From positions 6,448,001 to 6,512,000 of the forward strand of contig CM068764.1 in the NCBI GenBank assembly GCA_035084275.1: a stretch of DNA of 64,000 nucleotides. Reading direction: 5' to 3'. The notes beneath the pieces are model-generated. The model saw only the letters and a program-made list of their open reading frames with translations, was not told the DNA's origin and did not search any database. This document shows, piece by piece, positions 3,628 through 36,800 of this stretch. Each line of letters opens with the position of its first letter. Positions within the stretch are counted from its first letter, which is position 1. Both the position numbers and the translations under genes were made by a program. Source of the DNA: Hydrolagus colliei (Eukaryota).

Positions 3628-3786
3628 TGACCATCACACGTGTGTCCAGGTCCCACTTCATGGTCATAATCCAGGGCAATGTGCTGCACCAATTTCAGTT
3701 GCTAGGAAGAACTTGGGTTCCAGTCCAACAACTGTTCTGTAATTGCCATCTTTTCATAAAACCAATTCCCAGCTCATGACAGCAGC
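3628..3786 (+). other. MYO18A: 5' UTR part of the putative alternative start exon
   Basis: Strong acceptor ctttctgctttccactttctctgtacttgcag|3628, followed by ATG at 3787 in a strong Kozak context (agcATGG). Confidence 0.55.
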
Positions 3787-3825
3787 ATGGCTTTCTCATC
3801 ACGGTTTGCATTTTGGGAGAAAAAG
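3787..3825 (+). CDS. MYO18A: Alternative (gamma/MYO18B-like) first coding exon [13 protein letters not shown]
   Basis: 13 codons resembling the recalled MYO18B start MAISSRLALWEQK. Ends AAG|GGAAGT (non-canonical). Alternative canonical in-frame donor AAA|GTAAGC at 3963. Confidence 0.7.
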
Positions 3826-6800
3826 GGAAGTCCTGTTTTAAAATATGAATCATTTACATTTGCAATTAGCAATAAATCGTATTTGACATGGTGGTTCTTA
3901 GGTTGGGTTGTAGTAATGAGGAGTCTTACTACCTCCTCAACAATTGGGTGGGCGAAAAACAAAGTAAGCTTTTACTTGAAAATTTTATACACTTGCTGCC
4001 AAGGAAAATTGATTATATAAAATGCTTCTAGTTCTGGGAATTTAGTGTTTATTTAGTGTTGAATCTCCTACTGCTGGGTGCCTGTGGTAAAGGCAAAAAC
4101 TGTTCATGTTTTGTGTTTTATCTATTCTTGTGTTATACTTCTATGTTTTCATAATAGCAAGTAATACTGTTGAAGCTCAACCAGGCAGCAAGAAATTGAG
4201 AAGCCTCAAGGGATTTATTGTAGATACAAACCATAAATACTTCATTATCTCATCCAATTCCATTTAAATCAACAAAGGTTTTCAAAAAGGAACTAGACAA
4301 GTTCCTGTCATAGGACTCTGGGCTATTATATTTATTGCTAGATATAGTATATTGATGGAACATTGTGAAAAATTGGATGAGTAGGTGGGATGGATGATGT
4401 TCTACTTCTGCCCGAAATTGTTTAGTTTGGCTTTTATTCTGTAGATGTTACAAACTGCACTGCTAATTACATTTTTTTCAAATTTAACTAACATTGTTTA
4501 AAATGGGTAGAGTATATTTATTATGCATAATGTATAGTCTGATAGTAAATTAATTAAAAAAATTATGGATAATTAACTCTCACAAATGTATTAATTGGGA
4601 TTATTGGGATTATTATTGATGCATTTATACTAAGAGATTTAGAACTGTATTAGCTTTACATACTGTATTACAGTATTATAAATTCAATTTTGCTGGAGGT
4701 GTCCAGTTTTAACTGAAGTGATATGGACACTGGTGCATGGTATCTTCAAATTCAGACTGTCATATTGCAACCTCATCCTATAACTAATTAGGTTAAGGAG
4801 GAAAAACCTTTGGATAAGAAAAAGGTTGTCCAAGTGGAATCTCTTGATGAAGACCAACAGCAAAATTGTGCACAATCTGTAAGTTTCTTAAAATGGTTGT
4901 CATGTTTTTAGAATCAGTAACTCACATTTGTGTTCAGTGCAAATTTGCTTTTAGATCCAGTTTTTAAAAATTGTATTTATATTATCCTGTCTGTGTTAGA
5001 TTCAAGATGACTGTCAAACGCAGTTGCATTTAATACTTAGTCAGTTTTCTGAAAATCATACATTTTACAGGAATGCTGATGACTTTATATTTGCGTATTT
5101 ACTGCAGAAAATATACTTTGTCAGGTCACCTAATTAGTTTAATGACCATCAAAGATATCTGACCCATCAAGGGAATGTTCAATAGAAACTAAACTTGCAT
5201 TGGAAGTGTTACAGTTTTCCATTAATCAAGAAGTATAAAATGGAAAATTTGCATTTCTGCACTTGCTTTTTTAATGCCACAGCAACCTTGTGGTTGGCCT
5301 TCTCTTACTGGAGATCGTGATTGATACTGCATCAGCAGATGCAGTAGATGTGTTGATTTCATTTGGGCATGGAAGGTTTCCAAAGATCCTCCTGTAAACG
5401 ACTGGATCTTAGAAGATGTGCTCAGGTTAGCCTTTTTAATATTTTTTTTCTACTGTGCTTTGAATTGAAAAAGCTGGGAGCTTGAATTAGGTCTTGTTGA
5501 GAGCTCCAGTATGACTTGCAATATGGATTGCTGAAAAAAAAGTTGTTTCTTTATAGGAAGGAACGGCATAACTGGTGGGCTAGAAGGCAGATGGGGCTTG
5601 CTGCAGTGCAGCATATTAACTATGCTGTTCTTTGAGTCTTTCTGCGTGGGACTTATTCAGTAGTGTGTGAACAAAACCTAATAAAAGTATAGGCTTCAGT
5701 TTCAGGCATGCAATAGCTGCATGATAAATAATATTTTGCACACAAAAAATCAGGAAATTAGCAGATGTAATGAAGATTAAGACACTGCAGTTTGCTGCAG
5801 GTATTTTGCTTTGCAAGATATACATGAGCTAGAAAGAAAGCTACCATTATGTAACCCAATATTTTTAAATGGACATTTTAAAGTGGAGGTTGGTTGTACT
5901 GTATTTAGATGGTGGAGTAACACATTTTCTTTCTATTTGCACATTCTTATTGGATTAAATACTGCAAGCCATTTAGGGTGGGGACAGAATCCTCATTTAA
6001 ATATTCCACAATCAATGATATTTTACAAAATATTTTGTGAACATTCTGCTGATTGGGAAGAAAAACAGCTGGTTATATATTATAGTAGAATTGAAAAGGC
6101 CCTAAATATTTTAAAAGCAACTTGCACTGGTCTGTTTTCATGTGCATGTATGAAAATAAGGAAAAACAAAAACATACTTCTTTGGTTTGTAGTTTTAGTT
6201 TTATTTGTGTTCAGTGCATATGTAATATTGCTGAACAGTTAACAAAAGTGGAATATTAGAATTAGGTCTTTATTTTCGTAATGTTATTGCTGCTAACAAA
6301 CCAGAATTTATGGAGAAGATTAATTTTAACTTTTATTAATGCATGGACATAACACTCATTCTAATTATGAAGTTGTTTGTTGGATGGGGAGGGAAATTAC
6401 TGTACAGTCATTTTGAAACCACAACTCTGGAACCAATCTTTTAGGTAATGTTTCCTGCTGTTGTGCATTTGAGAGTATTTTTGCTTAATATTGTATATTT
6501 TTTTGCTTAATAGATAAATAGCTAAAGTGTGATATCAATGCACTTTAATACTATACATTTTAAATATAATTTATATTATAAAGCTGCATTACTTATGAAA
6601 GTAATACATTATTACCATTGTTATGTATTAATTATTCAAGGTTTAGGGACGAAACTAGACTTATCATATAAATATAGCTGTTCTTAACTAATACTTAGTT
6701 ACCACATTTGTATTTACTCTAGTTTTATTCCTTTTGCTTAATGTGCTTGCTACCTGCCATGTCATTCATCTGCTATAGCTTTTCTTTCTACCATTATAAT

Positions 6801-9800
6801 TTATGGAACATTTTGTTTTGCGGTATGTTAATTTAGTTGGAAAATGGTGCAAATACTAATGTGGTGAATGACAGGGAGCAGATGATCAGCAGTCCGCAAC
6901 CGGAGATAAATGGTGAAAATGGAAGTTCAACTGAACAATTCGGAAGCAAGTTTAACATACAAGAGAAAATAAAACAAGATATGCATACTGAGAGCCAGAC
7001 TGAGTTGCTTCATGAGGACCAGGGAGTTCCTCATAAGAAAGTGGCCAAAGCGGCTAAGAAAATGATGCAGAAGGTTTTAGATGAAATAGACAGTAAGGGA
7101 AAGGTGAAAGAGACAAAATCTAGAAAGCAACCAAAGGAAAACAAAGTAGAGACCAAGCCAGTTTTAGAAGCAACAGGGCCATCTAAAACGGAGAGTAGCA
7201 AGACTGCGCTACATGTTAGGAAAAAAGTTCCTATTCCTACAAAAATAGAACCAGCAACTCCAGGAAAGAAAACTACAGTTAAAGATGATATATCAGTGGG
7301 GTTGGCTAGCCTAATGACCCGGGGAAAATCAAAAGATCACAAACCTCGGCGAGTCCCAGAGAAGAAGGAGGAAGTTGTTGAGACTTGTCCGGATGATTTA
7401 CTGAACAAAAGAACGGCTTCCCCTCCTTTGGAACAATTCAAAACACAACCAGACAAACTACAACAGCAACAATTGGTTAAAAGCGAGGTATTTCTTCTGA
7501 AAAGCATGTACCAACTAACCAGAGTATGTGTGCAGTGTACCAGAGATACAGAAATAAAAGTTTTACTGAAGTTTGTGTTTTATCCCAATGCACTTTGTAA
7601 AATCTGCTTGGAAACTTGAACAAAAGACTGCTTGGATAGTGAGTGGCATGGAGCAATACTGAACCGTACTGTGCAAGGATATTGATTCTAACTGTGTCTT
7701 GCACCATTCTTATCTTGGTTCACTAACTATTTGGGCACGAGAAATGATTTGTCATCCTGAAACGTAGTTGTAGAATTGTGTGGCCTAACTTGAAACTGTT
7801 TACACATTAGACTAGAATTCGTTCAGATTTTTAAAAAATATTCAACTCTATGCATGATGTGCTAAGAAACTATGAATATATAGTATTATAAAATTGAGGG
7901 TTTTTTAAATTGTTTCGCTAGTCTCATTGAGGAATTAACCATGGTTAGTATATGGGATATTCAAGGCATGTCATTTCATGGTCTTTATTTATGGTCTTTG
8001 TATTTACAAACAAGTGCACTGTTTTACCCCCCTTTTCACCTATTTGAAGGAGAAGGTACTTCTCAATGAACAACAAATATCTGATCAGGAAAAGTTGCCC
8101 TCATCTATTATTGAAGAACCTCTACCAGATTTTACAAAGCAGGTGTGTAGCCGGTGTGTGGAGAGGAGGAAGGGAGAATAAAAAATCATACAGATAGTAG
8201 ATGAAACTTCTAGGCCAGCCATGTGGAACTTTGTGGAAAGATCAGGTGTAGCAAGTTATAACCTGAGTGAATAGTTATGCTTATACAGTATGCATGTGAT
8301 TTGCAATCAAGGTTCATGAGTGGAATTTGAGAAAAGCATGGGAGCATTTTCATAGTTTCTGACAATGGAAATGTAACCTTTGGACTGTCCTTTTTGCACC
8401 AGACTGATTGTGCATGTTTCTTTTAATCTGGCAACAAGACCTTTGACTTTTTTTAAATCCTGAATTATTTTTCATGTGTACATCTAGTTTTTTTTTACAG
8501 TTTGGCAAATATTTATATCATCTTCAAGGCATTTTGATCAAAAGTCTTTCTAATTTGGATTGTATAAATTCTGCAAAGGAAACCAGTGGGCTTCAGTTTT
8601 CAGAAATATCTAAAATGAATCAAAGTATATATGATATGTATGATTTTAGATTTGCGGTATCTTTTCTAGATACTAGAAAAGAGTAGATGCATACTATATG
8701 AAAGCTGTAGAGTAATTCATACTGTATGAAAGCTGTAGAAATCCACATTTTATATAATGACAGCTAACCCTTAATTTGCTGACAATTCTATGGAGAATTT
8801 CTTTTTAGATAGATGGACTGTTGTTGTTTCCATTTGGTTGATGAACTAAGAAATTGATTTTACTGTTGGCCATGTGACCTTTAGGCCCAAAGGATATCTC
8901 AACAAATGACCCCAACGGACAAAGCTCAGATGACACTGGAGAGAATCTTCTTTCTTTCTGTAAAAACAAACATTTTATTGAACAATACTTGAGTGTCTTG
9001 AATAATCCTGTCTGAACAATTTGCTATCGGGAGTTCATATTTAACACTTGTTGCCTTGCTTTAATAATTGCGGTATTCAGTATTGCACAGAGCTAGCTGT
9101 ACAGTACAATTTAATATATTATTTGAAAATATTCAGTTATAACATTGTAAAATTTTAATAGTAGTATATGCTAACTGTATGATAACAGAGGACTATGATT
9201 AGGAACCCCTCTGGAATATTTCACCATTACCACATAGATCACAGCATGATCGAATTACATCTTATCAAACTTGTTTTTTTTTACCTTTAATGACATTTCT
9301 TATCAAACTAATTGTAATTTTAGCAGTCAGCGTGTTTAACAGACTTCCCACATCAATGTACACTACTAGGTACAAATTGATATGTAACTAATGTCTTGAT
9401 TCACTTCTGAATACCCTCATCTTGGAACATTCATTGAATATTTATATTAGTAGACCAACTAAATACTATATTGTGTTCTAGAACTTGCTTTGATACCTTT
9501 GAACCTTGTGAAATACACCAATCTGTTGGAACTATATTTCATATTTATTTTTAATGCACAAGTAGTATTTGTTCCAATTATTTGAGTTCAGCAGGAGTTT
9601 TAAACCACTGGCATGTTTTGATGAAGCTGCTGATAAACTTTGACTTGGTATTTGCTGAGCACATTCTGAATGTTTTCCGGTTGTTTGAATGAATGCAGTG
9701 CTTTGTTCAAATATTTGAGTTTAATTTCATGTTCAATTTGAATTGGTGTTCATGTTGACATATGCTTCTTGAAATTGCTGTGTTAAAAGTGATCATAGAT

Positions 9801-12800: not shown

Positions 12801-15800
12801 GAAAAGTTTAGCTTGTAGGGCCTAAAACAAATCTGGAGTCATATTAATTGCATTGTTTTCCGGATGTAGGGATGGAATAATTTAATGTAATCAATGTTCA
12901 TTCAACGAAATTAATATTTAAAGATTTGGTTATTTGGACTGCTCATTACATATTAATGCCTGCACTATTGTTCATAGATTATCATTGCATCTCATTGTAA
13001 TTTTGGCTGAAGGAGTCGATTAATTTTGAATCTTTGTTTTGGCTCTTTTCTTTATGATTTGCAGAGTGTGCTTGGTATTAAAGGTTTACTAATTCATTAA
13101 GTGAATGTTTAAAATTTTGTTTATAATTGTCAGCACCAGTCATGTACTGTTGTGCATAGTGTGCAGCAAACTAAAATCAGTAATCTGCAATTACTGTGGC
13201 TTTTGTGGCATTTGACAAAGCAATAGCACTGGGTAAATAGGGTGAACAAAAGACTATTTCTGGTTTTGCTACCTAAAATGAATCAGGAAGGGTACAGTCA
13301 TGTGGTAAAAATATCCTCCACTGTCTCTTTACCCCACTTACCTCTAAAACCTTCTTGAACCTTCCCAACCCACCTTCGCAGCAGGGAGATACTGACTTGC
13401 TTTACGTCCCCTGCATTGCCTGACCCAACATTATTGGTTGAACTCAGTCTATCTGCCCTACTCTCTCTCTGGAACTTCATTTCAGAGTCCCTGTACTCTC
13501 CCCTTGCCTCCTCGAAGGAACATCTCAAGACCTTCCTCTTTTGACTGTGCCTTCAATCATTCTTCTCCCCAACCACTTTGTCCTTCTAAATTTTCCTAAA
13601 TTTAACAACTTCCAGCTTGGGTGCAAATCCTCAACTGACCAGTAGCTTGGGATGTGGGAGGAAATAAATGTAATTTGTTGCTGCTGTTATAATAGCTTTG
13701 CTCACAATGTGTATTAGGTAATTCTCTTAATGTGTGTTAGATAATTCTCTAGTGGTAGACGTGTGTGCTGTAAAAATATAATGTTTTTGTGTTCTAAAAT
13801 TTCAAATTATATTTGCTACAGCATTTATTTAAAGTGTGTGAGTAAGAGAGAGAGACTGCATGTCTATAATGAGTGACAAGAACGTATGCATGCCTGATAT
13901 TTTAATCGAACTGACGTCCAATTTCTAATTCTAGCTGAAGACAGAAGAGCAGATTGCTGTAGAGCAAGCCTGGTATGAAGCCGATAAGGTGTGGCTGGCC
14001 CACAAGGATGGATTTTCATTAGGTAATCCAGATAATAATTCCTTTCCATCGTTGGATGAATAAGAATGAAGTTCCAGATTTTAAAAATAGTATTTTCAGC
14101 AATGTTCCTACGTCAAAAGGATAACCTGCTTTCCAAGCAGCAAATCCAGCATGTCTAGGATATGGGGAGCTATGCTCCAAATTGTGTTATCATTTTATTT
14201 TCCCTCCTGAACTGTCTCGTATCAGATTTATTCAATGTTGACAGCTTCATCTGAAACCATTTTCCATTTCTACAGAACTGTTACAACGATTATCAAGGCC
14301 AGTGAAAGAAGTTCCACCACCACCACCCCCGGCATACTTTTATTTCTAAACACTTGGCGAATAGCTAAATATTATTGCCTAAAATATTCAAGATGTATAG
14401 ATTTATTTAATCTCTCATGTTAGTAAATCTCTATCTAGAAATTCTCTTGACACTGTGAAGTCTCAATTCATGTGAACATGATTGACCTGCACCTTCACAT
14501 CCATATGAATATTTGTCAGATTTTCCTCCTTGCAGTGCCTAAATTGTATTCGTCATCTCATTTGTGTGAAAATTGAATAGAGAATTGAACAGAGATTTCA
14601 CTACATTAGGGTGACTTGTAGGTCAAGGCAACTATTCATATCTTGTGATGACAATTTTTGAGTATTTCGATGGCACTCATCTTGCTGATGACTTAACAAT
14701 TGATGAGGTGTTTTAATGTTGTATTTTAGAATTATAAATTTATTAGTTAGAGTGGGTGGATTATGATTGCACTCGGTCTTTCAACTTGTCTATTTCTGCA
14801 AATATGATGTTCAGAACATGCCAGATGAATGCATTTTTTTAAATTATCTAGTAACTAGTTTGTTAAGCTACTTTAATCTTAGACCAATTCTTAATTGACA
14901 CAAAGCTAATATCTCTGAAATTTATTTAGTATAATTGTAGAAATTGTCCAATCTTTTTGGGTGTGTCTTTTAAGTCTAAAGCGGCTTTTATTTTTCTAGG
15001 TACTCAGTTAACGGCTGATGCTGAAGAATCCAGCCTCCCTGAAGGCAAAGTGAAAATTAAACTGGACCATGATGGAAAAATACTGGATGTGGATGAAGAT
15101 GATGTGGAGAAGGTATTTTTTTTTCATATCTCAAATTAGTTCTGGGGTACAAGAACACCATGTTTGAAACGAGAAGAGGTTATTCTGTCCATTAAACAAT
15201 CTGCTTCCCCAACCATATACAATCTTCTCGTCATCAATTCCCTATTTCTCATTTGACTTGTTGCCTGTACTCTCTAAACTCCAAAATGGCTGTGCTGTCC
15301 AGGTATTTTTAAGTTGAACAATATTTACTATCTTTTACTAATTGTAGTCAGAATGACTAAACTGTGTCATTTAAATGATTAGTTAATAAAGATTTAACAC
15401 TCCTTTTCCAAATAACGAAGAGCTTTAATATCAGAAGTGTTGTGACTTATCATAGAGTTAAGGAAATGGTTGGCCAAATGAATCATGGTACATCACCGCC
15501 ATACACCTCCAAATGTATTGTGTTTGCATTAGTAATTATTGTTGTATTTAAACAGGCAAATCCACCAACTTATGACCGAGTGGAAGATCTTGCTTCCTTG
15601 TTGTATCTCAATGAGTGCAGTGTTCTGCACACATTACGCCAACGCTACGGCGGTAACCTGATCCACACATTTGCAGGGCCAAACATGGTTGTGGTGAATC
15701 CGCTCAGCTCTCCTTCAATGTACTCTGAAAAGGTATGTCTTGAATATTGTTTTTTTCTGGTGTGCAATTGTTACATACTGGCAAACATACATACCGTATA

Positions 15801-18800
15801 TCTCCGCGTATAAGGCGCACTTTATTTCAGGTCGGAAGATCTCTAAAGTAGGGGGTGCGCCCTATACGCAGGTACAAGCAATTTTGAGCCTCGGAGATAC
15901 AGTAAACAGGGGGGGTGGCCGGCGCGCTGTCAGCCGGGGTTTGGTCAGTGTCCGGCGGGGGTTGGGAAGAGCGGGTGACGGGGCTTCGGCCTCGGCCGCC
16001 CGGGCAGCGGCAGCAGCAGCGGACTTCAGTGCTGTGCTTACCTTCTGCCGAACCCAGTCTGCCTGCCTCACTCCCTGCCGCTCTCTCTCCCTGCCTGCCN
16101 NNNNNNNNNNNNNNNNNNNNNNNNNNNNNNNNNNNNNNNNNNNNNNNNNNNNNNNNNNNNNNNNNNNNNNNNNNNNNNNNNNNNNNNNNNNNNNNNNNNN
16201 NNNNNNNNNNNNNNNNNNNNNNNNNNNNNNNNNCCGCTCTCCCTCCCTCCCTCCCGACCTGCCGACCTGCCACTCTCCCTCCCTCCCGGGCTGCCGGCCT
16301 GCCGCTCTCCCTCCCTCCCTCCCTCCCTGCCTGCGTGCCTCTCTCCCTACCTACCTGTCTCTCCTGTCTCTCCTCCCTTCTGCCGGCAATATCATTGAAA
16401 ATGCTTCCGTTTTCTTTCACCAAGAAAAGGTCAAAAACGGGGGGTGCGCCTTATACGCGGGTGCGCCTTATACGCGGAGATATACGGTATGTGACAGAAT
16501 ACTTACACAGTGAAACGCTCTGAGACCCCGTCTGGCGTGGAGGGCGCTATATAAATCAAAGTTGTTGTTGTTTAAACCAATTGATCCAATTTTGAATGAC
16601 TGGTTGCTTGCGTTATGTTTGAAAGTTTGTTGCATATATAATGTGTGTGTATATATTATATACAGTAGAAGCTCATTTATCCGTGACTCGATGAACCGGC
16701 ACTTCCGTATAACTAGCAAGCCAAAACAAAAGTCCCCATTCGATAAACCGGAACTTATCCAGAACAATAGCAGTGAAGCATTTGTAAATGCATAAATAAT
16801 AACATAATAACAGAATGTTGTATTGGTACTTATTTTTAAAACTACTCTCTTGCGCTTCTCATCTTTACTAGTAGCTGCTGCTCTTGAAGCCATGATGCTG
16901 CAAGGTTGAGGTTTATAATCCAGTAATTCTTTTTAAAATGGAGCACGCCAAGTGGGTGAGAAAAACGGAGCACGATTTTAAAGCCATACTAGCGGCAAGC
17001 CGATAATGCTAGCCGATAACCCACATTGTCGCGCAGGTGCAGTATTTCAGTTTGCTGGTAGTAGAGTCTAGGGCTATCTGCTTGCCTCTGGTAAAGTCGC
17101 AAGATTTTAAACTCGAGCTACCGTTTTTTTCACCTGCTTGGCGTCCTCCATTTAAAAAAGAATCGCTGGACTGTAAACTTCAATCAGTAAAAGGTGATAA
17201 GCGCAAGAGAGTAGTTTTAGCAATAAGTACCAATACAATATTCTGTTATTATTTAGTCTGGTATGTATGGTGTGTGTTAAAATAACTTTAATTTTTTTGT
17301 GGTGGGTTTTCAGCCCCGGGCCGCCCGAATATTCGGCAGGCGCTTTACCCGGCATTGGCCAAGTCCCGCGGGTGCCGGATAAACAGGCTTTTACTGTATT
17401 TCTTAATATGTATATATATTTTATATATATATCTATGGAAGAAAATTTGCTGTTTATTTACAAGCATATGGAAGCTGATTGCGTTCTTGTTATAGGTTAT
17501 GCACATGTTCAAAGGTTGTCGTAGGGAAGATACTTCTCCACATGTGTATGCTGTTGCACAAGCTGCGTATCGAAACTTGCTTACGACACGACAGGACCAA
17601 TCTATTGTTCTTTTGGGACGAACTGGCAGTGGGAAAACCACAAACAGTCAGCACCTCGTTCAGTATCTAGTCACAATTGCAGGCAGTACAGGAAAGTTCA
17701 TCACGGGTAGGTGTAAAGTCCAAATTCAAACCATAACTTGAGATCTCAAGTTATGGAGAGTTTTCCTTTTACGTAAAAATATAATTTTTATGCTTTTAGT
17801 ACCATAGGTATCCTTCTTAAATTGAACTGAGACTTCCATTGATTGCTATCTCTTCCAATGTTTGAACGTCACAGTGGAGAAATGGCAGGCTGTGTATTCT
17901 ATTTTGGAGGCCTTTGGCAACAGCAGTACAAGTATGAATGCCAATGCCACTCGCTTCTCACAGATCATCTCGCTCGACTTTGACCAGACTGGTCAGGTGG
18001 CTTCAGCCTCTGTACAGGTGAGAAAAAAAGAGGTGCTTCAAAGAATATTTTGAGTGTCTTGACTGGAGAATTTCAACCTTCAATCTAGATTCCTTTTTTA
18101 AAAAAAAATGAGGGATATGAACATACCGTGTTGCAAGCTTTAAATACAAAGCTACCTCCATAACAGCAGCGTGATCTCCTTCTTCAAGTCCCGCCTGAAA
18201 ACCTCCCTTGTTGACTGTGCTTATAGTCACCTCCCCCACCGGCTCCGGTATTGTTAAGCACTCGACCCTGCGTGGAGGGTTCTATGTAAGCGCATGTTGT
18301 TGTGATTTATGAAGACATACATAAAAAAATTCTCTTTAATAGACCATGCTTTTGGAGAAGCTCAGGGTTGCTAAGCGTCCAGAGAATGAAGGGACATTCA
18401 ATGTGTTCTATTACCTGATGGCTGGAGCCGACAATGCTCTCAGGTACTGTTGTATAACTGATTTAAATTAATCTATGCCTTTATGTTATGTAACAATACA
18501 AATGACTTCCACGGCTAATTTTCTTTTTATTTTCCCATTTACAGAACTGAGCTTCACCTGAATCACTTTGTAGAAAACAGTTTGTTTGGAATTACACCAT
18601 TATCAAAGGTATTATTAACTATCTTCAGTTAAATATATCCCACGATGATTAATTGTAAAGTTATCCTTCCTTCTCTTCCCCTCCCCTATCCACAAGTCCG
18701 GCCAACCAAGGTATAAGTGTACTGCTAATTTTGGCTATAAAAAGGGAAGATGAAAAGAAACCTGATTTCATTGCATTAAAATTGGCAATAGTGATAGATT

Positions 18801-21800
18801 ATCTTGGAAATATACTTTAAAAAGTACAAATCACAACTTTTTGTGGAGAATTCAGAGAGGATAACAAAAGCTTGAATATTTAAGAGCAGACATGGTGATT
18901 TTCACATGCAGCAACTATTCTTGCAACTTGAAGGCTGCTCAGTTACATAAATTTAGGCAAAATAGTTTGATATAGACTAATTCCAGGTCATAGAAGTAAA
19001 TTGAAAACCGAGAAAATAAATTGGTTTTGAGATTTAGATGTAAAACAGTTGAGCTGAAGGGCTCAGGGGGTTGCAGTTGAGATGTGGGCTCAGAAGTGAG
19101 CAGGATTTTAAATTATGGCATTACTTGAAAGCATCAAATGAGGGAATATTGTACAGTTGGAATACAAGAGTAGCTCAAGGTGGATTGTTTTTCTAGTCAG
19201 CAGCATATCTCAGAATTGAGGTAGCATTGATAATTACTTCCCTTTTTTGATGCCTTGCCAACACCTTTTCATCTAAAATCATGTAACTCTTTTCAGACTC
19301 TCGGTTATACAATATCTTCTTAATTCAACCATTATTCTGCATGATCATGCCCTTTATGGCTTAATCTGGCAACAGTTTTGTATGTGCAGATACCGATCAC
19401 TTTGTCGACAGGTTAAGATGATTTCTGGGTGAAGCCCAGATTTATTTGCCTGATTATAAATTTAGAAGTGGAAAAATCCTTGAATATGACATTTTATTAA
19501 AAATTACTGAGAGTATTTAATTGTCTCTCCAGCCTGAAGAGAAACAGAAGGCAGCTCAACAATTTAACAAACTCCAGGTTGCTATGAAAGTACTGGGAAT
19601 TTCAGTTGATGAACAAAAAGCATTCTGGCATATCTTGAGCGCCATCTACCACTTGGGGGCAGCAGGAGCCACGAAAGGTACTGTGTAGATCATTTACATT
19701 TTAACAAGTGACTTCTAAAAACTATTTTGAATGTCTTTACAATTATTTTACTAATGGCCCTATGCAATACCCAAAGCTATTATCACAAATGTCTCTACTA
19801 TTATGTAAATATAAAAGTATAATAAGAAATGTATATAGTTCAAGTTTCATCTATAAATAACTTACTGCTGCTTTGTTTTAATTTTAGTTTTGATGCATAT
19901 GTAATTTTAGTTTTGATGCATATGCAGTTGAATTGTGTTTATCAGATCTGACGCTGGGACACATGGCTGTTTAGTTAGTCTGATTTCCCACTGATAATTC
20001 TCCCCACTTAGTTTCATGAGCTATTAATATTTGCCTTTGTTATAAAATATAAAAACCAGACAGTAGAATTTTTATTGGATCTAATTAATGCACAAAATGT
20101 GCTTGCATAGCGCTATGACAGCATTCTTTTTCCTGGAAACTCAGTAACAGTTCAGATATTAATTGGGTTTTACAGTATGTTACAAGTGAAGCATTATTAA
20201 GGAGAGTCTACAAATACATTGTTTTCTGTTCACCTTTTGCTTTCTGTTGCTCCTGCACCTATCGAGTGAATGCAAGTTTGAAGTTCACGCAAATGGCAAC
20301 TGGAATATCTAACAGTACAAATTTAGAATTTTATACTGTGCGTTGTGTGTTCAGAAGGCATCCCAAAGCACTTAACAGAACTGACGGACCCAAGCTATGG
20401 GTATATGCCAGTGGGTGGGGAAAAAAGATGCCTGAACACATGGTCAAAATTATAGGTCTTAAGATGGACCTTGCACAAGGAGAGGGAGAGGTAAAGTCAG
20501 AGAAATTCCAGAATCGAGAGACAGAAAGTCTGAAAGCTCACACACCGATAGGGGTGGGGTGGGTACGATGTGGCATACGGAATAGGCTGATGCCTGCTGT
20601 CAGTGAAATCTTAGAAGTAAAATATTGATGGAATTGTACAGAAATCTGATGTGCAAACTAAGCACTTTAATCTGTCACAAACCATCAGGAATCCACAAGA
20701 AAAGCTGATTGATTCTGATAACCCTAAACAATCTCTCAGTGGTTACTAAAGTGGTTGTGAGGGACGTTTCAGTGGTTTAGAGTTGAGATAAATGTGAGAT
20801 TTGATTTCAGTTGGGTAACTTGCTTTCTAATCATGTAAAGTAGTCTTGAAATATTTTGATTTTAAAATAGAGATTATTGCACAGATATACTGGCACATAC
20901 CTGATTATGTGGGTTGTAATTTCTATATATCTAGAGGAGATTTTTCTTAAACTGCGATAAGTTTCAAACCAAGCAAATGAAGTTTAAAAAGCTTTTGACT
21001 TGAAAATAAATGTTAAATTTATGACTGACCAGATCATTTGGAATTTAGCAATGTGATTTTAGAAAACAAATTCAGAAAGGTTATTTTTGTCCTCCATTGC
21101 ATGACTGCCCTTTGGTATGTTTTTGTTACCATGCATCTATTTATTGGCTGGCAACAACCACATCCTTATCTTTTTGCTGGCACCTTGTAAAATTATGCTA
21201 TATGTTTCAAAATAAGCATTTTGCAACACACAGACTAATGTTTAGTATTTAAGAATTGTTTCACAGGAAACAGCAGAAATGTAAATATTTCTAATGCACC
21301 TATGTGCCTAGAGAGTGAATGGAAGCAGAAGTTGATGAAATTTGACAAATGGACAAATTACAGTATTTTGGAATTTTTTCCAAAAGCGGGCAGGACAAAT
21401 TCCTTTTACAAACAGGGTTGAAGATTAGGCAGATAATGATAGACACAGATCATTACATGCTCCATGGAACTGCATGGTTCATTGGCTGCTGGAATGAAGA
21501 ATTAATTACTTGAGAAATGCAACTGCTTAGAGTTGTAAATGTGTGTTGCGAGGTTAGATTATAATAACAGCTTGCTTGAGTACCTTGCACATGAAAGAAT
21601 GTTTTGTTTCTACAGCCAATATGTGACTCTTTCAAATTGATGGGTTATCTTTTTAAAATTCGACACAATATCTCCATGAAGGACATCATTAGGAAGCAGT
21701 GCCACTGCTTAGTTGTTTGAACCATGGCAAAAGGAATAAGTATCATGAAGTTCTGGAATAAACATAAACCTATAGAGTATGATGGATACATACTCATGTA

Positions 21801-24800
21801 TTCAGTGAATGTTCAGTGAAGAGAATTTTTGATAACAATCGATATTTTCAAATTTTTCTTTTAAACAAAATCGCTATTTTTAAAATAGTCCATTTGATGC
21901 AAATAAAGTTTTAAATATTCTTAAAGATATTCACAGGTGAAAAAATCTTTGGACTTGTAATTTGTGAACACAGTCAAAATTGATGGAAAGCATTAAAATT
22001 ATGGAATTTACCTCTCAGTCTACCTCAGTATATCAGCTTCTTGCTATTGAGAAATTTCCGAATAAATCAGTATGAGCAATTGCGCGTAGTATCTTTATAT
22101 TACATTTTCTTTACATTTACCTATTTAGATACAACTGTTACACGTCCTATGGCTGATACAATGGTCGTTCCATACTGACTGCAATGGTGTTTATTCTCAA
22201 TTGATTTTACAACTGCATACCTAACAATTGTAAATGCAATGTAAGCCAAAACAGAACTTGGGGAATCTAAGGAAAAAAATCTCTACATGGATAGTTAGAT
22301 AGAATATGGAATTCTCTGCCACAAACAGTAATTGAAGCGAAATCAATAACTTCCACCAAAATAGATTTGTTTACAAAATAACATTGCTCAGATTAGAAAG
22401 AGCAAGTAACGTGCTTCTTGAAGTATTTTGTACAACAATATGTACTGTAATTTCGGGGACTTTGAAATAATAACACAATTAATCATAAATCTGACTAAAA
22501 TTGAATTAAAGTAAATGGAAATTGTTTCCATATGGAGGTAGAGGGTACAGCACGGAATCACCAAACACTCTTCCGTTTTCCTCGCAGCAATTATTGGAGA
22601 AAATGACATTTGCTAATAATTTAAGTAAGACTTTGGATTGGTATTGTCACAGCTGTCTAATCTCTGTTTAATAATGTTTTCTCCATCTGCTTCATTGCAA
22701 ATTGCTCCAGGTAGTACGCAGATTAATTTTTAAACTATCTTGTTTACAGTGTAGCACAGCTGGGTGGCTAGCAAAACAAACCTCAACAGAATTATATTTG
22801 CACCATGTATAAAAACTTTGGCCAGATGTAATTTAATTAGCATAACTCTAGGTTATCATCAGAATTTATGTCCCACCCTAACTAATGCTATTCCATGGAT
22901 GTTATCACTATGATCCTAAAAAGATTGGAGCCACAGTGCTCCACAGAATGTTTATTCCCTTATGTCTAAACTTATAACCTTCAATTCCACTCCACACAAG
23001 ATATTTCTTTGAGCTCCCCTTTAAAGATGTTTATCAACATAACATTAATTGCTTTTGATAGAATTCTGTTCCAAACATCTGCTGCTCTGTGGATGGAAAA
23101 ATAACTTCTAATCTGTAGTCTTGCTTGAGGCTTGACAGTTTTTTTACTCATGTCAGCCATCATTGTTCAAGTTCAATAACCTGCTTTCATTACATTATTT
23201 GTGTCTCTCTTCATTAATAAGGACTTGGATAATGTTCATCTGTAATCTTCTGCAATTAAAACTACAGTGCATCCAGTTGACAGCACATTCTTTACAACAT
23301 TACACCCTGGGATCCACTCGATTGTTCTTCTTTATATCCTCTCTAGTATGATGCTGTTCTTTTGCTCACATGTTATTTCACATAATCCTTACATTTGATA
23401 GAGAGCCTTATCAAGTCTTAGACATCTCCAAGCACTTCACAGAGTATACTGTAAAGTGAATTGACTGTATAATTTGTGAGTGCTAATTGCGCACAACAGT
23501 GTTCCACAAACAGTCATAGAATGAGTGACCAAATTCTTATTATTTTGAAGGCATTATTATCCCTGGCAAAGCGACCTCCCATCCAATGAACAACCAGGTT
23601 CCTACTTACTGCTTGGTAAACAGAAGTATGTAAAGCAAATAAATTTGCCTAATCTTTTGCCGCACCCAGGAATGGAACTCAGGTTTTCTTGCATGTGAGG
23701 TAAGCTCTAACCAATACGCTACAGGACACCACAAATGTCATATAGTTAAAACACTTACATTTGAAATTATTCAACCAATTGACTTTCATGTGTCAAATAA
23801 GCTATAGCTAACTGTTGTTATGACTGTCACAAATTTATGATTATTTGACTTCTCTCATCGAATTACCTCCAGCAGCCTTTTCATGGTAGCAACAAATCTC
23901 AGTTCCTTCTGTTCTTATGCTAAGTAAGCACTGATTACATAGGTATAGACAATCAGACTTAGAATAGCCTGGACTGATGATAAAACACCAGAAAGCCACA
24001 CTGCACAAAATAAAGTTGGAAATACGTCAACAATCTTACCAGCTCCTTTTCCAATTAAAGTTAGATGCTTTTAATTCTAAATTCGAAATACTATACATAT
24101 AATAGTTTTAATTTTTGTTTACATAACAGACCTTAAAAGTATTTTTTTTAAATAGAAGTACTGTAAGGGAAAATTTTATCAACAGATAGTCCCTTTTTCA
24201 CATTACAGAAAAGAACTATGTTGGGTCTCTCTCTCTTGTTCCGACCTTCAAACCTGCTAATTTTCTCTCAAAGGCCTTTCGAGAACGCCCACACTAGCCA
24301 AAGTAGATTGGCTAGTGAATCATTGCTTTGCATTTCAGGGAAAATTCCAAGGGCTCATTCAATTCAGGACATGAAACAAATTAGCCATTATCATTTGGAC
24401 AATGACCGTAGAATATTTTAGGGTTTTATTAGATTAACAAGGAATCCTGCAGATGAAATAGTCTTTCACTTTTATGACTGTTTGTGGAAAAATACAGTAA
24501 CCATGTGAAATGCTTTGAGATGCCCCCCTGATGTATCAAATGCACCAATTATTATATTGTTACTTCCCAGTAAAAGGGAATTGGTGCAGTGTTTACTGTC
24601 ACCAACCCTGGATATTGGCTAAGGAAATAACCATTTTTATTGTGAGCATCTTTTGCAGTTTTGCTTTGCATATTGAAGTGGCTTACAATATATGTATTTC
24701 AAATATAAATTAAATATTGCACTTCAGAATCACATTACATTCTGCTACAGGGTAGAAATAAAAGCTTGAATGCTTTCCTTGTAGAATTTCATTAAGCAGT

Positions 24801-27800
24801 ATAAAGGGCATATACACTAATTGGCACTTGTCTGAGCTAAGAACATTCTCTTATATTTGCAAATGCATTTTAACATAATTAGCAATATTGCTTTGTAGTT
24901 TGCCTGGATGATGTAGACTACATGAGAGAATAAAACACTTTAGAATTAAGATTTTTTTTGCAGTTTAAACATATTGGCTTGTGTAGCAGCTAGCTGCTTG
25001 GGAAAATCTTGTATGCATGCTTAAAAACAGCAGATTTTGGATGTTAGATGAGAACAAGATTTTGCTTGGCAATGATGCCCGTTGTTAAATGGTCTGTCAA
25101 TCCTTTGTCTCCAGGAATAAGGGTGAAGTACTGGTAGTTTGGGGGTGAAAAGAGATAATTTTCTTAATTTTATGTTTGTCCAAATGTAACACAGATTCAA
25201 AATCCTAAGGAGGCTTCCTTTAATCTTGATGTTGTTGACCTGTGAGTTTAAAAACCTGCCCACATGAGGGCACTAAAACTATGTGTTATTAGATACACAG
25301 CCTATCCTAATTCACATTTCTAGAATGCTAAAGAAAAGTGTACAATGTATTTTAACAATTTAAAATTGTTCACATCTTAAGGGTTTGTTAAGTGCAGCAT
25401 ACTTTTTGTTAATATGCACTGTGCAATACTTTCGTGCAAGAAAATTGGATTTTCACTGCTGAAGAAAGTGACGTGACCCAATTTCTTTGAAAATGCTCCA
25501 TGTATTTGGGATTTTGTTCAGCTGCCTTGCAAAATATTCCAGTCACCTTATCAAGCAGTATAATAGTTTAGCAGAACAATCTTGCTTCATTGACATGGAA
25601 ATCTGTGAGCCCTGTGTCCCAGCTGGTAAATGGAAGTGTCTGTTTTGCTTAGCATTATTTACATTCACCGAACTATGTGGAAATAGTAACTTAGGCACAT
25701 TGATTACAATCGTTTGTTTTAAAGTAAGTGTAATATGTACCTAATCGTTCAAGTATCTGAAAACCTATTCCGCCTTATCTTATTTATTTTGATCTTGCAT
25801 GTATTCTCTTCTGTTTTGAAATGCGCGTTGTGCTAAACATGATTAACCTTGGAAAGCATTTTCCTGCTTATTTTGCAGCATTGCAGTTTTTTTTGCTGAT
25901 GGATATTAAAAGTGAAACTGCTTCCTAACATTTTTTTTGTTTGCATGTTGCATGCTGTGGCATAACAACACAGATGGTGATGAAGGTAAAAATAATTCAT
26001 CATTGTATGTTTCCATTTTCTGCCTCAAAGCTATTTTATTTACAAAATTTAAAATATATATGATGTAGGTTTTATAGATCTTTTCCCTGTTTGTTGACAC
26101 TCAAAGCTTTCATTTCATATTTCATATTTCACAAATACACCGTGATTTAATTTGTAGATCTATATATTATTGAATGCTTTATCTCATATTAATTTTGAGT
26201 TTATCTACATATAATGATTTATCCAGGTATTGAATATATAAAGTTTTAGTGAGAACAGCAGAAATATACAATAAATAGCTATGTCCCAGGTATTTCCTCT
26301 TAGAATTTCATCCGCTTTACCAAAAATATATATATTGTACATAGTCTTGCTTTTCACGTTCCTTCCATCTTTTTCCCTCCTCCACCAACCCTGAAGATGC
26401 AAGTTCATGCTAATGTCTGGCCAATAGTATTTATTGTTGGGCAGATAGTCATATGGGAGGCTTTTTAGTAATACAAAACTGGCTAGTGGCAGTCCACATA
26501 TTTAATTGCATATAGTTAGAAGCTTCCTTAATCACAAGCAAGGAAAGTAAGTCAGGTTTCTTGTTCCATAACGTTCAACCATTCCGTGTTCGAGCAATAT
26601 AAACAGGGCATTAATTGTTTGACTTAAAGAATTGCAACATTGCTTTTTTCCCCTAATTTCACAACTATGAAACAAAATGGCATTTCCAACATGAGAAAAG
26701 TATTCTCTGTTATGAGGCAGATATGATGAAAAGTTTCAGAAAATCCAGTTACCTCTGTGTGTCTTATGGAAAAAAAATTCCCATTCAATATTTTATGTAC
26801 ATTTATATATGTGTAAGTATATATACAAGTATCAATTTGGAGAAAATAGTTTTTAACAATTTAATCTCAGTTTAGACTTTACAGTACAGATTCTAGATAT
26901 TTATATATGTATTTATATATTTGTTGAAAATTTCTGGACAAAGAGATTATGTGGGAATGTGATTTGGGCAGGACTAATTTTCCCTCTATCCTTCTTTTGA
27001 ACAGCTTGCTTAAAATTGTCAAATTGTAAGGAAAGCCTAATTGCAAATGTCAGCCAGAACTAGGAATTCAATGCTGATATCTGATGCTTTCTTTGTTTAT
27101 GCTACTGTTAGCGAAACACTGTAAATGAGGAATGGAGAGTCTCTTTTATACTATCCATTCCTTATCACGTTGTCCAGCGCTTAGGAAGATTCTGTCCAAG
27201 GACAACTAAATGCACAAGCTCTGTGCGGTTTAATTGTATTAAAGAACCAGTTACGCAACCATCTCTTTAGCAGCATTAAATATTGATCCCAAATTTCCAG
27301 TCGGGCTATTACTGAATGGAAGTGAATTGATTCACACAATTTGTAATTATATTTCACAGGTATAAATTGGTGTGCCCAAAAAGCCACTCTTAAAGTAATC
27401 ATGGAAGCCAGCTTCCAGTCTGAGTTACGTTCACACAACATTTCTCAACACTGTTTACTGGGCTTTTCACGGTGAATTGCTATGAGAAGTACAGTACAAA
27501 CCAAGTATTAGGTTATCATTCAGCTTTAAAGCCAGAGTTATGAATCCAATTTTGGGATTATCATAAGTTAATGTAGTGATATGAGAATAATGCTTAAACA
27601 GTGGCTTAAGAATATTTTTCGTACATTGCACTGCATTTGTATTCATAAACTGTTCTCTAAACTTGTGTTTTAAGCTGGGAGAAGGCAGTTTGCCAGACAT
27701 GAATGGGCGCAGAAAGCAGCCTACCTGTTAGGTTGCAGCCTGGAAGAACTGTCCTCCTCTATTTTCAAGCACCAGCTAAAGGGCACGCTGCCAAGATCAC

Positions 27801-30800
27801 CTTCCATCCGGCAAGGATCAGATGAGAGTGGACAGGGAGATGGCCAAGGTAAAACACCCCCAAAATATTCATTTTTATCAAAGCTGCTCATTTTAAAAGT
27901 GGCTGAAAAAAATGCAGATTTACAGCAGTTGAATGCATCTTGTACATCGAATATATCTTGTGTGTATTGTAAATTGCACAAAGAAATGAATAATAATAAT
28001 AATGAATCCACCTTTATGCAACATGTATGTTCATGACAACAAATAACCTTGTGTATCTCTGCGTTTTTTAAGTACAATGTGCTACTTTCAAGTTCTATGG
28101 TGACGTATGTGTGCTTTAATAGGACCTAAAATATCAGCGATGGAGTGTCTACAGGGGATTGCATCCAGTTTCTACGGAGAGTTGTTTATGTTGTTAATTT
28201 CACTCATTAACAGGTAATTCTTCAATTGTTTTCAAAATGTGCCAGATTTGTATTTAAAAAGCATGTTTAGCGTAAACCTACAGAATATACAAACACATTT
28301 TTAACAGTTTATTTCCATAATTGTTCATTCAAATAAATAGATATTGATAGGGTGAAACTGTTGCCACATGTGTAGGTGGTAATTATATTTTCACAATTTA
28401 TGGTTTGAGAAATGTAGTGCAGCATTCTGCCTTAACCTAGATTATTTGTAATGGTATTTTGGTTGCATAATTAATTACATCATGTATTTTCAGTAAACAT
28501 TTGCTTCTTTTGGAAAAGCACAAAATGTTTTGTGCCTTGCTCCTCAGAAACCTCTACCTTAGGTGTGATAATACATACATTCAGTTCTGATATCTCTCTT
28601 CCCAATTTATTTCCTGTTGTAAGAATGCATTGCCTGAAAAGGTGGTGGAGGCCAATTTAATAACAACTTTTAAAAGAGAGGTAGACGTTTATTTGGGGAG
28701 GGCAGGTTTGCCGGTTATGGGGAGAGAGCTGGGCAGTGCAATTGAATTGCTCTTTTCAAAGAGCAGGCACAGACTCGATGGGCCGAATGGCCTCCTTTTG
28801 TCCCGTAAGATTCTATGATTCTAAGATTTATTTTTATTGAGATTATATTCTTTTAACAGTTAAATATCAATTCATTTCATGACTTGTGGCATTTCAGCAA
28901 GTTTACTTAATGGATGTTTAGTGTAACTTTACAAAAATATTTTAAATTTCAAGAACTCCTGTAGCTCAGTGGTTAGAGCACTCGCCTTACAAGCGTGAGA
29001 CCTGTGTTCGAATCCAGGCAGATCAGGGCGAAACCTTGGGCAAGTTTCCTTCTTCTACACGCCTAATAATAATCCGTCCTCCAAAAAACCACAATAATAA
29101 AATTGCTAATTTCAATACATGACTGTTTGTGGGACACTGCTGTGCGCAATTGGCTTTGCACTTTGATAAGTTGATAAGATGTGAAAAGTGCTGTATCAAA
29201 TGCAATGATTATTATATTATGTATTTATAAGTGTAATGTTTATTTTAAAAACATATTGTCAATTCTATTATGGCTTGTGTTTCTCTTCATTCATATTAGG
29301 GCCCTTAAATCAACTTTGCACTCGTTTTGCTCAATAATGATTGTGGACACCCCTGGATTCCAAAATCCACAGAGCACAAACCATAACAGAGCTGGAACGT
29401 TTGAGGAACTCTGCCATAATTATGCACAGGAACGTCTACAGATCCTCTTCTACGAGCGAACGTTTTTGCAAGAGATGGATCGATATAAGGAGGTATTCTG
29501 TTTGTCGCAGGAAACTTGAGCAAACAAAATAAGGTGGCATTATGGTATAGCAGAATCAGCACTCGCACATAATTGCTCACCGAAGATTTTACGCTTAGCT
29601 GTAAGATCCACTGATCTATATATCTGTTATGTATTTCATTAAGCCAGTCCAGGCTCTCAGAGTTTCTTAGTCTTATAATAAAAATGATAACCTCTGTAAC
29701 CTTTGACAAGTTTCACTTTAAATTTTGTGGAAAATAATTTGCTTGCAATGTTCATCACTGACATCTTGACATGCAAAGTAATTAATGGCAAAATGTTGGC
29801 AGGTATATTTTTTCCCATCAAATCTGTACTAATTAACTATTGACTGGAATCATAACCTGAATCAGAATTACATCTACTAATCTGTCTTCTTCCTCTCTAG
29901 GAAAACATAGAGCTTGCATTAGATGACATAGAATCCAGTTCTTCTTTCTCTGTAGCTGCCATAGAGCAAGCCTCTCATCAGGCACTGGTAAGAAACTCAG
30001 GCGTGATGATCTTTGAAATTAAATCTCTCTGTAGTCACTGATCCTGAAATCATATTCATGAACTACACCATCACATTTGTACTATTTTCAGGGATGGGGA
30101 GGGGAGGTAGGGGGGAGATTGCCTCATACATAAATAGATTTATTTCTTTATTTATTCCCCAAGAGGGAAAATGTATGATTTCTCTTGCTCTATCACTGAA
30201 TAGCATAACAAGTTTTTGCCCCCTTAATAATGGTTACTGATAGTGACTGTTGTGCCTCATTATTTTTGTCTCTGACATGCATTTCCTTCTTTCCCTCCCT
30301 CCCTCACCGTTCTGCCTTCCATGTTCACAGGTTTCAATCAAATGAATTTGATTATCAATATAATATAATCAGTATAGAGTAGAGTATAATCAGTATAATA
30401 TCAGTATAATTTTAAGAAGACAGGTTTCAATCAAATGAATTTAATTAGCAATATAATTTTAAGAAGACTTAAAGCCGCATTACACATTGTATGCCGCAAT
30501 GCTCCTTACATATAAATATTGAATTTTATGTATCTAGTTGCTTCTATTGACATTTTATACTCTTGAATTGCTTTTCAGGATATGGTAAACTTGCGTGAAT
30601 GTCTTCTCTGCTTATTTGAGATATTATAGTCCATATTTCCTTTTTGAACTTTATTTAGTTTACGGTTGACAATGCGGGAATGAGAACTGTTTTATTCATT
30701 TGAGAGGCAACAAGTCACACAATAATATTAGAGAAGAATAGGATTTAAGAGCTAAGCAATAAGGAAATGAATCAATCTGAAAGTTCAGCAGCAACAATTA

Positions 30801-33800: not shown

Positions 33801-36800
33801 GACCTGTTTGCCTGTTCATGTGTTTTTTAAAGATCACATGGCACTGTTCTAAAAGAGAAGTAATAGTGTAGGAGAATGGAATTTTTCTAGTCTGCAATCT
33901 TCATGGCTATTTGTGGGATATCACTGTGCCTATCTTGGCTGCTGTGTTTTGGTCACAAAATATACAGTTACTCCACTTTACACTATACCCAATAAAAGTG
34001 CTTTGAGATATCTTAAAGTGATAAGTTGCTTTGTGAAATGCAAGTATTATTATGGTTATAAAATACTGCTCGATCCTCTTGGGGTTTTGAATACTAGTTT
34101 AGAGAACTATATACAGTACCACTGTGTACAATTCCAATAATTATAAGGCATTGGTTTTCCTGTTAAATATTAAATATTGTGTTTAAATATCAGCTTGAGT
34201 CTGAAACAATGACTGTCCAGCGTCTTAGGATGTCCTCCCGACGTGGAAGGTTACAAGTGTAACTTTGTTGTTGTCACTGTTGTTGTTGTGTTCAAGGAAG
34301 TGTTGTGTTCAAGGAAGTGTTACTTTATGATTTTTTTCATGCCCGTGGAACATTTTATGATTTTTATCTCTAACAGAAATAATACTGATAATAAATATTT
34401 AATGTCAATAGCTGAGCTATTCTAAGTGTACAGTCATAGTGATGAATAGATTTTCAAGGTAATGCAGGTGTAATTCCTCATTGTTTGAGGTATCTATTAT
34501 GTATCGTAGGTATATGATGTAGGACATGTCAGCATGTACTCTGCTCATAAAATGAGCAAACTGATGAATACCATATCTTCCATCACTAAACCATCTTGTT
34601 TTCACCTTTGCTGGATTACGTGAGCACACATATCCATCTAGAATTACATAGAATGATACAACAGGGCCAGTGTTTATGCTTCACATGAGACCACCCCCCC
34701 CCCCCATCTTAGTTTTGGACTTGCTAACAAGTTAAATTTGAATCCTGACAACCTAATTAGTTATACAGACTATCAGTTTCGTATGAACAACAAATTTTGG
34801 CCTGATAATGTGCAGCTTGTTTAGTTTCATCTTTTTATAGATTAGCCAAACATATTTTGTTGTCTGTTGTTCTCTATTTGCTATTGTACCATGTATTAAA
34901 AGAACACTGAACCAATGGTGCAGTAGCATTTAGAGGCATGATTATAGGATACTAACTCTTGCCCAAGATCCCAGTATGCTTATGCAATCAAGTAGAGGTA
35001 CAAAACTGAAGCTGTTATCTTCCCCACAGTGTGCCTCTGCAATCTGTTTCCATGCACCTCATAACAGTTTCCTGAAGAATGGTGTTGGCAGATGCCTGGA
35101 ATCAGGTGACCTGTCAATCCTGTTGTGAATGGATTGGTGCATTGCATGGAAGATCTGCCCACGGTTCGAGCCCACAAAACATGGTCAATTCACTTTACAG
35201 TACATTCCGTGCTTTGAGAAGACTTGATAAGGCGCTATATCAAATGCAAGAATTATTACAGTATTATTATTTCAGAAGCAAGAAGGTTAAATATTTAACT
35301 TAATATGAGGACAGAATAAAACATAGATTCTTCTCAAATTAATAGACGAAGATTCAATGCAATATATAAATTTTTTTAAATGAGTGAATGGATATTGAAT
35401 TTGTTAATTTTCAAATAATGCTTGCATTTGATATAGCTGCCTTATCACATCGTTGAGATGTCACAAAACACTTCACAGGATATACTGTAAAAAGAATCGA
35501 CTATATATTGTCTTTTTTGTGGAACAAATAATGCAGTGTGAAAAACCAAAAAAGCACTAATCTTTCAATGCATACTATTTTTGAAAACGCATTTCTGTCC
35601 TCTTTGATGTTTCCACACTAATGATAATATTCTAGTCAAGAGTAGTAGACATGTCACTACTTTCTCCACAGTCTCTTGATACAGTGCCAATCGTAAACTG
35701 GTTGCTAGGAGACGTGAGAGTGACATGGATTGACTTGCTCTCTGCGGACTTCACCCTCAGGAAGTGCTAGAGGTTTTAATTGTATCGGCATGTGAAACTG
35801 AGAAACATGCTTGCCTTTGCTTTTTTCTTGGCTGCAGGACTCAATATTATGATTCTCTATTAGGCTTCTCTGGCAGTAGAAAATGTTCATTTTTCAGGTT
35901 GAAGAAAAGACCTTTCCAAATATTTTCAACTTATAGTTGTTGGGTCAAGAATTATGTCATAGAATTGTATAGCACCGAAGGAAGTCATTCGGCCTATCTT
36001 GTCTGTACCGGATCTTTTAAAAGAGCTTTCCAAATTAATCCTGCTCTCCCCATAGCCCAGCAAACTTGTCCTCCCCAAATAATTATCTAAATATCATATT
36101 GAATTTATTTTCCCTTTTGACCTAGAATATTTCCTTAGACATTATCTTGTTTAATCATATTGGAGGCTATCAAAACAAATATTCTTGTTTTGGTGGGGGG
36201 TTGTAATCTTTGAAATAAATAAGTATCTCAATATTAAAACAAGATAACCAATATGTTTTTAAAATTGTGATCTATAGGTTATCCGGATCACATGGTCTTT
36301 TCTGAGTTCAGGCGCCGCTTTGATGTCCTTGCACCGCATCTAACCAAGAAACATGGGCGCAATTACATTGTCACAGATGAAAAACGGGTGAGTTAACTCA
36401 AAGAGACACTACATTCTATCAGAAATCTGCTGTGCATGGTGCAGTAAGGTACGAGTTCTCCCCAATAATTCTCCAGTCTCAGGCGCAAGATCAGAGAAGG
36501 CACTGAGTAAATGTTTCTGGCCTGGAAAGGGCCAGTTACTGAGTAACTTTACCCTGAATTACTGCATTAGCCAGGTTTCTGTTGGGAAAGGAGTGTTAGC
36601 ATATAGCTAGCTTAAAATCAGTGTTAAAAAATAGTATGTGGCACAAGAGGAAAAAAATTGCAATTGTTGAACTCAATTTGCATTTTGTCCTAAAGCTTAT
36701 CATTTAATAATAAATTTTTAAAGCAGCATTATAGAGCACAAAAATGTTGAGGCTTATTTTCCACCAAATCTTGCCAAGTGAAAGATTATTTCACATTAAA

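Follow-up and report, generated by a model that had tools for sequence, protein, structure and literature searches.

The question raised by this locus is how a first coding exon that ends in AAG|GGAAGT, with G instead of T at the second intron position, is joined to the rest of its gene. The window, i.e., the whole stretch of 64,000 nucleotides of Hydrolagus colliei DNA that was analysed, holds an ATG at 3787 followed by 13 codons, which end at 3825 directly before GGAAGT. The donor is in phase 0 and its +2 base is G3827. The acceptor TAG|GTTAAGGAG is found at 4791|4792, resulting in an intron of 966 nt. Past 3825 the reading frame runs open for 46 codons up to AAA|GTAAGC (3963|3964, phase 0), and a stop is met at 4018. 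The original prediction had described both the exon end with its +2 T>G donor and the 46-residue open frame, and both are read as such in the window; the gene name which it gave, MYO18B, was not upheld. The features are the following.

3628..3825, + strand: first coding exon of MYO18A-gamma, 5' UTR (3628-3786) and 13 codons; the 5' boundary is predicted from a polypyrimidine-CAG acceptor at 3627
3787..3825, + strand: 13-codon CDS, equal to residues 1-13 of paddlefish MYO18A-gamma; ATG context with A at -3 and G at +4
3823..3831, + strand: non-canonical 5' splice site AAG|GGAAGT, pairing with the genome's U1 at -2..+1 and +3..+6
3826..4791, + strand: predicted GG-AG intron, 966 nt, the junction deduced from orthologous proteins
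3832..3841, + strand: U-rich downstream element of putative function, +7..+14 in common with a bony-fish-like record at 6/8 positions
3961..3969, + strand: AAA|GTAAGC, canonical-looking, 138 nt downstream of the GG donor and in phase; judged cryptic, not the coding route
4792..4878, + strand: second gamma coding exon, phase 0-0, its start resembling orthologue residues 14-17
6837..7487, + strand: large gamma-specific exon, 217 codons, homologous to the vertebrate gamma N-terminal extension
8050..8142, + strand: probable further gamma exon, phase 0-0, with AG/GT ends
13929..63394, + strand: shared MYO18A motor, neck and coiled-coil exons, with 28/28 mapped introns GT-AG

Some minor elements were noticed alongside. 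The first coding exon carries three upstream ATGs, two of which open uORFs at 3660-3779 (39 codons) and 3679-3705 (8 codons), while the third starts an out-of-frame ORF of 21 codons (3776-3841) overlapping the main ATG. Within the GG intron, near the acceptor, TGCATG occurs at 4734 and ACTAAY at 4487 and 4783, which we take to be RBFOX-type and QKI-type motifs, respectively. A short interspersed-repeat fragment at 4272-4311 had many contig matches in all four runs. A probable small gamma exon (PEPVVPSPQ...) at 10275-10356 ends in CAG|GCAG|GTGTCT, i.e., tandem GC/GT donors four nucleotides apart and in different phases.

By sequence comparison, the gene is MYO18A and not MYO18B. The KE-rich and PDZ exon of the alpha isoform was located approximately 21 kb upstream (L004:1237-2232; PDZ E=7.7e-10) and is 94% identical to MYO18A of Callorhinchus milii. 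The motor and coiled-coil exons gave 30 matches to a named MYO18A (P0002), 29 at 83-100% identity and one merged match at 53%. An identity as MYO18B was rejected, as the PDZ exon is present and the named matches were either myosin-XVIIIa or unnamed/hypothetical, none being XVIIIb. The gene is flanked upstream by a serotonin-transporter-like gene and a connexin and downstream by an FAD-oxidoreductase, presumably the same arrangement as around human MYO18A. The connexin gene (PF00029; L006:3883-4947) is intact and, at approximately 40 kb upstream, separates MYO18A from the serotonin-transporter-like gene.

We assign 3787-3825 to Myo18A-gamma, the muscle isoform, as its first coding exon. A PDZ-less N-terminus of the form MAFSSRF.FWE.K-VKEE is present together with the gamma extension, and 13/13 residues are identical to the paddlefish protein P0130. 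According to passages of PMC11112018, Myo18A-gamma is the striated-muscle isoform, lacks the PDZ domain, and has its first 19 amino acids highly similar to Myo18B, which explains the earlier MYO18B label; the N-terminal resemblance was thus real. The isoform described by Horsthemke 2019 (via PMC11112018) likewise has a PDZ-less N-terminal extension and an N-terminus resembling Myo18B; it was described in mouse, whereas the present case is a chimaera-like fish, in which the window exons match gamma-type proteins. The passages of PMC11112018 hold nothing on the splice sites of Myo18A-gamma, and the word "exon" is absent from this review. Approximately 14 kb past the window end, at L019:3709-5127, a Ser/Arg/Lys-rich open frame of 473 codons with no Pfam match is probably the alternative C-terminal exon of MYO18A that is specific to gamma.

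The donor-like sequence at 3825 is not a product of chance, since AAGGGAAGT occurs only once per strand in the 64-kb window and, at the intron composition, p for G.AAGT at one given position is ~0.0012. All 28 other mapped MYO18A introns are GT-AG. Sliding the junction gives no canonical reading, and when GT and GC dinucleotides near 3825 were listed in all phases, none joined the 13-residue start to VKEE; the nearest GT, at 3830, is in phase 1, and the only exonic GT, at 3804, is 22 nt upstream of the donor and in phase 2. The surroundings are U2-like, with AAG|G.AAGT at the donor and TAG at the acceptor; a branch-point-like TAACTAAT adjoins the acceptor and the pyrimidine tract is weak. A U12-type intron was considered and rejected: U12-type donors follow RTATCCTT, while the donor here reads GGAAGTCC.

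Orthologous proteins show where this start is continued. When the large gamma exon was used on its own as a protein query, nothing was found among 1236 candidates, while a search of representative proteins with the same exon gave four matches and seeded a profile search; the profile search with the gamma extension gave 21 gamma-type proteins. The 13-residue start was kept in 8/21, from seven species (paddlefish, four teleosts, and two mammals), and all eight continue directly into [VI]K[ED][ED] (VKEE/IKEE), no insert being found in any of them. The remaining gamma-type proteins begin with the PDZ isoform (five) or elsewhere (eight). The window exon at 4792 opens with VKEE, and the paddlefish N-terminus is the exact product of 3825->4792. 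Because the 13-residue start is joined straight to VKEE, the GG-AG junction 3825->4792 is needed in the window, and it is likely used in Hydrolagus colliei, as far as can be judged from orthologous proteins, which are gene models rather than cDNAs, the genomic donor having been read for a single one of the related records. To judge from RefSeq models with the correct N-terminus, the junction seems to be accepted by annotation pipelines already. The eight models without the 13-residue start were P0124, P0125, P0126, P0131, P0132, P0137, P0139, and P0141; in two of them a substitute start directly precedes VK (MVKDEDK, MVWVKEDAK), which would fit gene finders overlooking a donor without GT. Six teleost proteins (P0131, P0132, P0135, P0137, P0138, and P0140; 464-655 amino acids) have the gamma N-terminal extension and no motor domain, one of their clusters having 44 members, mostly from sequencing-run assemblies; they are perhaps a short gamma product or a detached gene.

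The genomic donor of a relative came from a relaxed pattern search of metagenome records, in which only +1 G, and not +2, was fixed. The full-length first-exon pattern found no metagenome record, and the relaxed search gave four matches, of which L026, L028, and L029 lacked an ATG, contained in-frame stops, and were dropped as chance matches. The fourth, L027 (MDSQ01079901.1), reads MASRSRFSFWEQK and then GGAAGTCTTGCTTT, with the donor AAG|GGAAGTC as in the window. It matches the window at 7/40 positions upstream, 31/39 of the CDS, 12/14 over intron positions +1..+14, and 7/27 further downstream; +7..+14 alone are identical at 6/8 positions (p ~0.01 at 30% background). Because its peptide FSFWEQK matches teleost proteins, L027 is taken as bony-fish host DNA, which is likely; it is one record, ends 41 nt into the intron, and owes its gene identity to the peptide.

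With the bases of the site and their fixation read directly, GG found in a second vertebrate lineage, and GA-AG listed for human MYO18B in a published table, we are highly confident that the major spliceosome would use GG as the normal donor of a real, and likely ancient, GG-AG intron of 966 nt (3826-4791). This had been the first of the explanations offered in the original prediction, and the orthologous N-termini, the GG in L027, and the human MYO18B GA-AG all support it.

In the proposed mechanism, U1 would pair across -2..+1 and +3..+6, with a lone mismatch at +2, for which the conserved U-rich element at +7..+14 may compensate. The genome's U1 forms seven Watson-Crick pairs with the GG site, a number reached by 21/28 control donors; being only average among the controls, U1 pairing alone does not explain the tolerance of GG. 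The standard U1 5' end was present in 11 of the 12 listed matches, the twelfth being weak and truncated, with 42 of about 15,900 candidates scored; a U1 copy altered opposite +2 was not seen among these 12. In the genome's U6, nucleotides 38-31 form eight contiguous pairs with +9..+16 (-4.9 kcal/mol). A helix of eight pairs was found at none of the 28 other MYO18A donors and in 0.2-0.7% of 2991 random stretches, in a post hoc test using the register in which +5 faces C42. For L027, 7/11 pairs were counted and no stable helix, with 1/28 controls and 10% of the background also reaching 7/11, and a U6 register shifted by three paired equally well; the putative extended U6 pairing is strong in the chimaera and weak in the fish of L027. 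In the human B complex, as described in passages of PMC10943123, additional intron bases are paired by the part of U6 that precedes the ACAGA box, and U+2 is held by DIM1. The compensation would most likely come from such an extended U6/5' splice site helix, which we propose tentatively; otherwise, and with somewhat lower expectation, the U-rich element would be a putative enhancer-protein site, e.g., for TIA1. The reporter work in parts of PMC6280755 places GG second to last (GC > TT > AT > GA > GG > CT) and has non-canonical sites as mostly minor, both of which count against the GG site as the normal donor; it also found a strict dependence on enhancers. As to purpose, we can only speculate, with some sympathy for the idea, that a slow, enhancer-dependent first coding intron limits the sarcomeric class-18 myosins or gates them to muscle. 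In MYO18A, GG could also exclude the gamma exon from alpha transcripts, which would leave MYO18B unexplained.

Compatible with a used GG-AG intron would be a regulated switch, in which the in-frame GG cut competes with retention of the intron or with an out-of-frame cut at 3830, the GT four nucleotides further, so that non-muscle transcripts are sent to decay. The GT at +5/+6 is common to L027, weak non-canonical donors in reporters shift to +5 (in parts of PMC6280755), and in the ubiquitous alpha transcript the exon falls inside a long intron. However, GAA|GTCCTG has by inspection little complementarity to U1, GT at +5/+6 is plain donor consensus, and MYO18B, which according to passages of PMC11112018 is without an alpha-type upstream isoform, kept its non-GT donor all the same. 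We consider such a switch rather unlikely.

The age of the GG-AG intron was approached through the paralogue. The supplement of PMC4176328 (Parada 2014) lists for human MYO18B a U2-type GA-AG intron, chr22:26157098-26159197 (hg19), with 846 tissue reads from six tissues including heart and skeletal muscle, six cDNAs, and four GENCODE transcripts. As the coordinates in that supplement are 0-based, the next exon starts at 26,159,198. The variant rs133885 lies at 26,159,289 (hg19; given in parts of PMC8633773 and PMC3591001) and is p.G44E (in parts of PMC13142019), a second-position change at c.131; by coordinate arithmetic (131 - 91 = 40) the exon starts at c.40. Thus 39 coding bases precede the GA-AG intron, which falls after codon 13, in position and phase as in MYO18A, a placement obtained by arithmetic on published coordinates and not by alignment, with the human donor known only as "GA". 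A donor other than GT thus likely predates the MYO18A/MYO18B duplication. The human intron differs from that of the window in having GA rather than GG, and it is a row of a supplement table, with no mention in the main text of PMC4176328 and no link to MYO18A. MYO18A is absent from the human non-canonical intron list in that supplement. In mammals, therefore, MYO18A may have GT, or the junction may have been filtered out. In the Hydrolagus colliei genome, two protein searches for MYO18B gave only the gene itself and a myosin that we take to be class-9-like, and two patterns gave only the gene itself and 13 chance matches, all translated and rejected, these searches being insensitive; insensitivity, an assembly gap, or a lineage loss may account for the lack of a match.

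A genuine GG-AG intron would also be compatible with GG in MYO18A and GA in MYO18B having arisen separately from an ancestral GT. The paralogues do differ in their +2 base, and the comparison covers the donors of the window, L027, and human MYO18B. Against this, such donors are very rare, PMC4176328 counting 184 high-confidence non-canonical sites of every U2/U12-like kind, and it is unlikely that the same intron would be affected in two paralogues unless descent or a constraint is shared. A separate origin is in our view improbable. Descent from one non-GT donor can be extended to a wider and decidedly tentative reading: the sarcomeric class-18 myosins may have kept a stand-alone non-GT donor at the first coding intron since before their duplication, exchanging GG and GA with no reversion to GT in the three lineages read, spliced by pairing of +7..+14 with U6 beyond the ACAGA box, and serving as a muscle-specific gate.

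Among the closest known systems is the GA-AG donor of FGFR1/2/3, an alternative site (Twigg 1998; Brackenridge 2003, as cited in parts of PMC4176328 and PMC6280755). Like the MYO18 donors, the FGFR site is non-canonical, U2-type, and common to vertebrate paralogues, and it needs downstream intronic sequences. It depends on a GT six nucleotides upstream, whereas MYO18A has no such GT and GG is apparently the sole route to the conserved protein. The human GG-AG introns of COL21A1, EFHC2, ELMO2, and CPSF3, taken from the first 28 of 161 GGAG rows in the supplement of PMC4176328, have, as in MYO18A, GG at +1/+2 and a U2-like remainder, and are read-supported. The rows give no sign of their retention from cartilaginous to bony fish or of their sharing with a paralogue, while the GG donor of the window is kept in a bony-fish-like record and its paralogue is non-GT. 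Neither the MYO18A GG site nor the link between the two paralogues was found in our literature search, most subscription papers lying outside its reach. MYO18 was not mentioned in the main texts of PMC7072748, the TOGA2 preprint, and PMC1557818, nor in the supplements of PMC6280755, and among the matches listed no main text paired MYO18B with GA-AG. Within the reach of this search, the MYO18A GG donor and the MYO18A/MYO18B link would be new; non-canonical U2-type donors, the FGFR precedent, and the MYO18B table row were known.

The original prediction had also considered a donor loss specific to the lineage and rescued by exon extension, in which GG is inactive or of minor use and splicing proceeds from AAA|GTAAGC at 3963, so that 46 hydrophobic residues are gained. 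A frame that stays open as far as an in-phase GTRAG is found at 1.7% of positions in two local introns and at 2.9% of 63,267 positions in the window, which is less special than the GG donor sequence. The donor at 3963 forms seven U1 pairs, the same count as the GG site, and GTAAGC is unchanged in the runs X5, X6, X7, and X9; six conserved bases are weak evidence where the chimaera-like sequences differ by 1-2% only. In the related organism B the extension is broken by C>A at 3851 (codon 22 to TAA) and by a 13-nt deletion at 3857, as read in one contig with depth 29 against 45-56 for its neighbours, possibly one allele. The extension has no Pfam match and its best 19-residue hydropathy is 0.95. 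As the insert is present in 0/8 orthologous N-termini and L027 is unrelated past +14, the 46-codon extension is best read as chance, and with a non-GT donor in more than one lineage the rescue is very unlikely; minor use of the 3963 donor is possible.

Weakest is a base-call or assembly error at 3827, also raised in the original prediction, which has in its favour a prior only and a comparison made on contigs rather than raw reads, and which we regard as practically negligible given the same G in a second sample, in the related organisms B and C, in three low-depth runs, and in L027. The site was covered by 7/8 DNA runs, none with another base in the assembled contigs, and X10 did not reach it. 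The covering runs were X1 (possibly the source of the assembly), X5 (second sample, depth 50), X6 (organism B, depth 29), X9 (organism C), X7, X8, and X12, four of them at depth 3-5; with X1 set aside, G3827 stands in six runs of four studies. As far as the contigs show, the non-GT/GC dinucleotide is fixed in the genome and is neither an error nor a rare variant. The runs X7 and X12 also contain a second foreign contig, which aligned from the ATG to intron +13 (42/52), with flanks unlike L027; its 10 differences from the window have no listed positions, so that G at +2 is not implied, and its flank had no match in the Hydrolagus colliei genome.

A non-GT donor that has persisted for hundreds of millions of years in both paralogues would imply that the stronger GT is selected against. 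In reporters GG ranks with the weakest donors, yet it is seemingly obligatory for an isoform of a heart-essential gene, MYO18A being needed by mouse hearts (in passages of PMC11112018). The non-GT donor may account for the gene models that miss the 13-residue start, and changes at MYO18B c.39+2 and at the neighbouring +7..+14 bases could be misjudged in variant calling. The locus would further offer a natural substrate for studying the tolerance of the spliceosome to a purine at +2, the position contacted by DIM1 in the B complex (in passages of PMC10943123).
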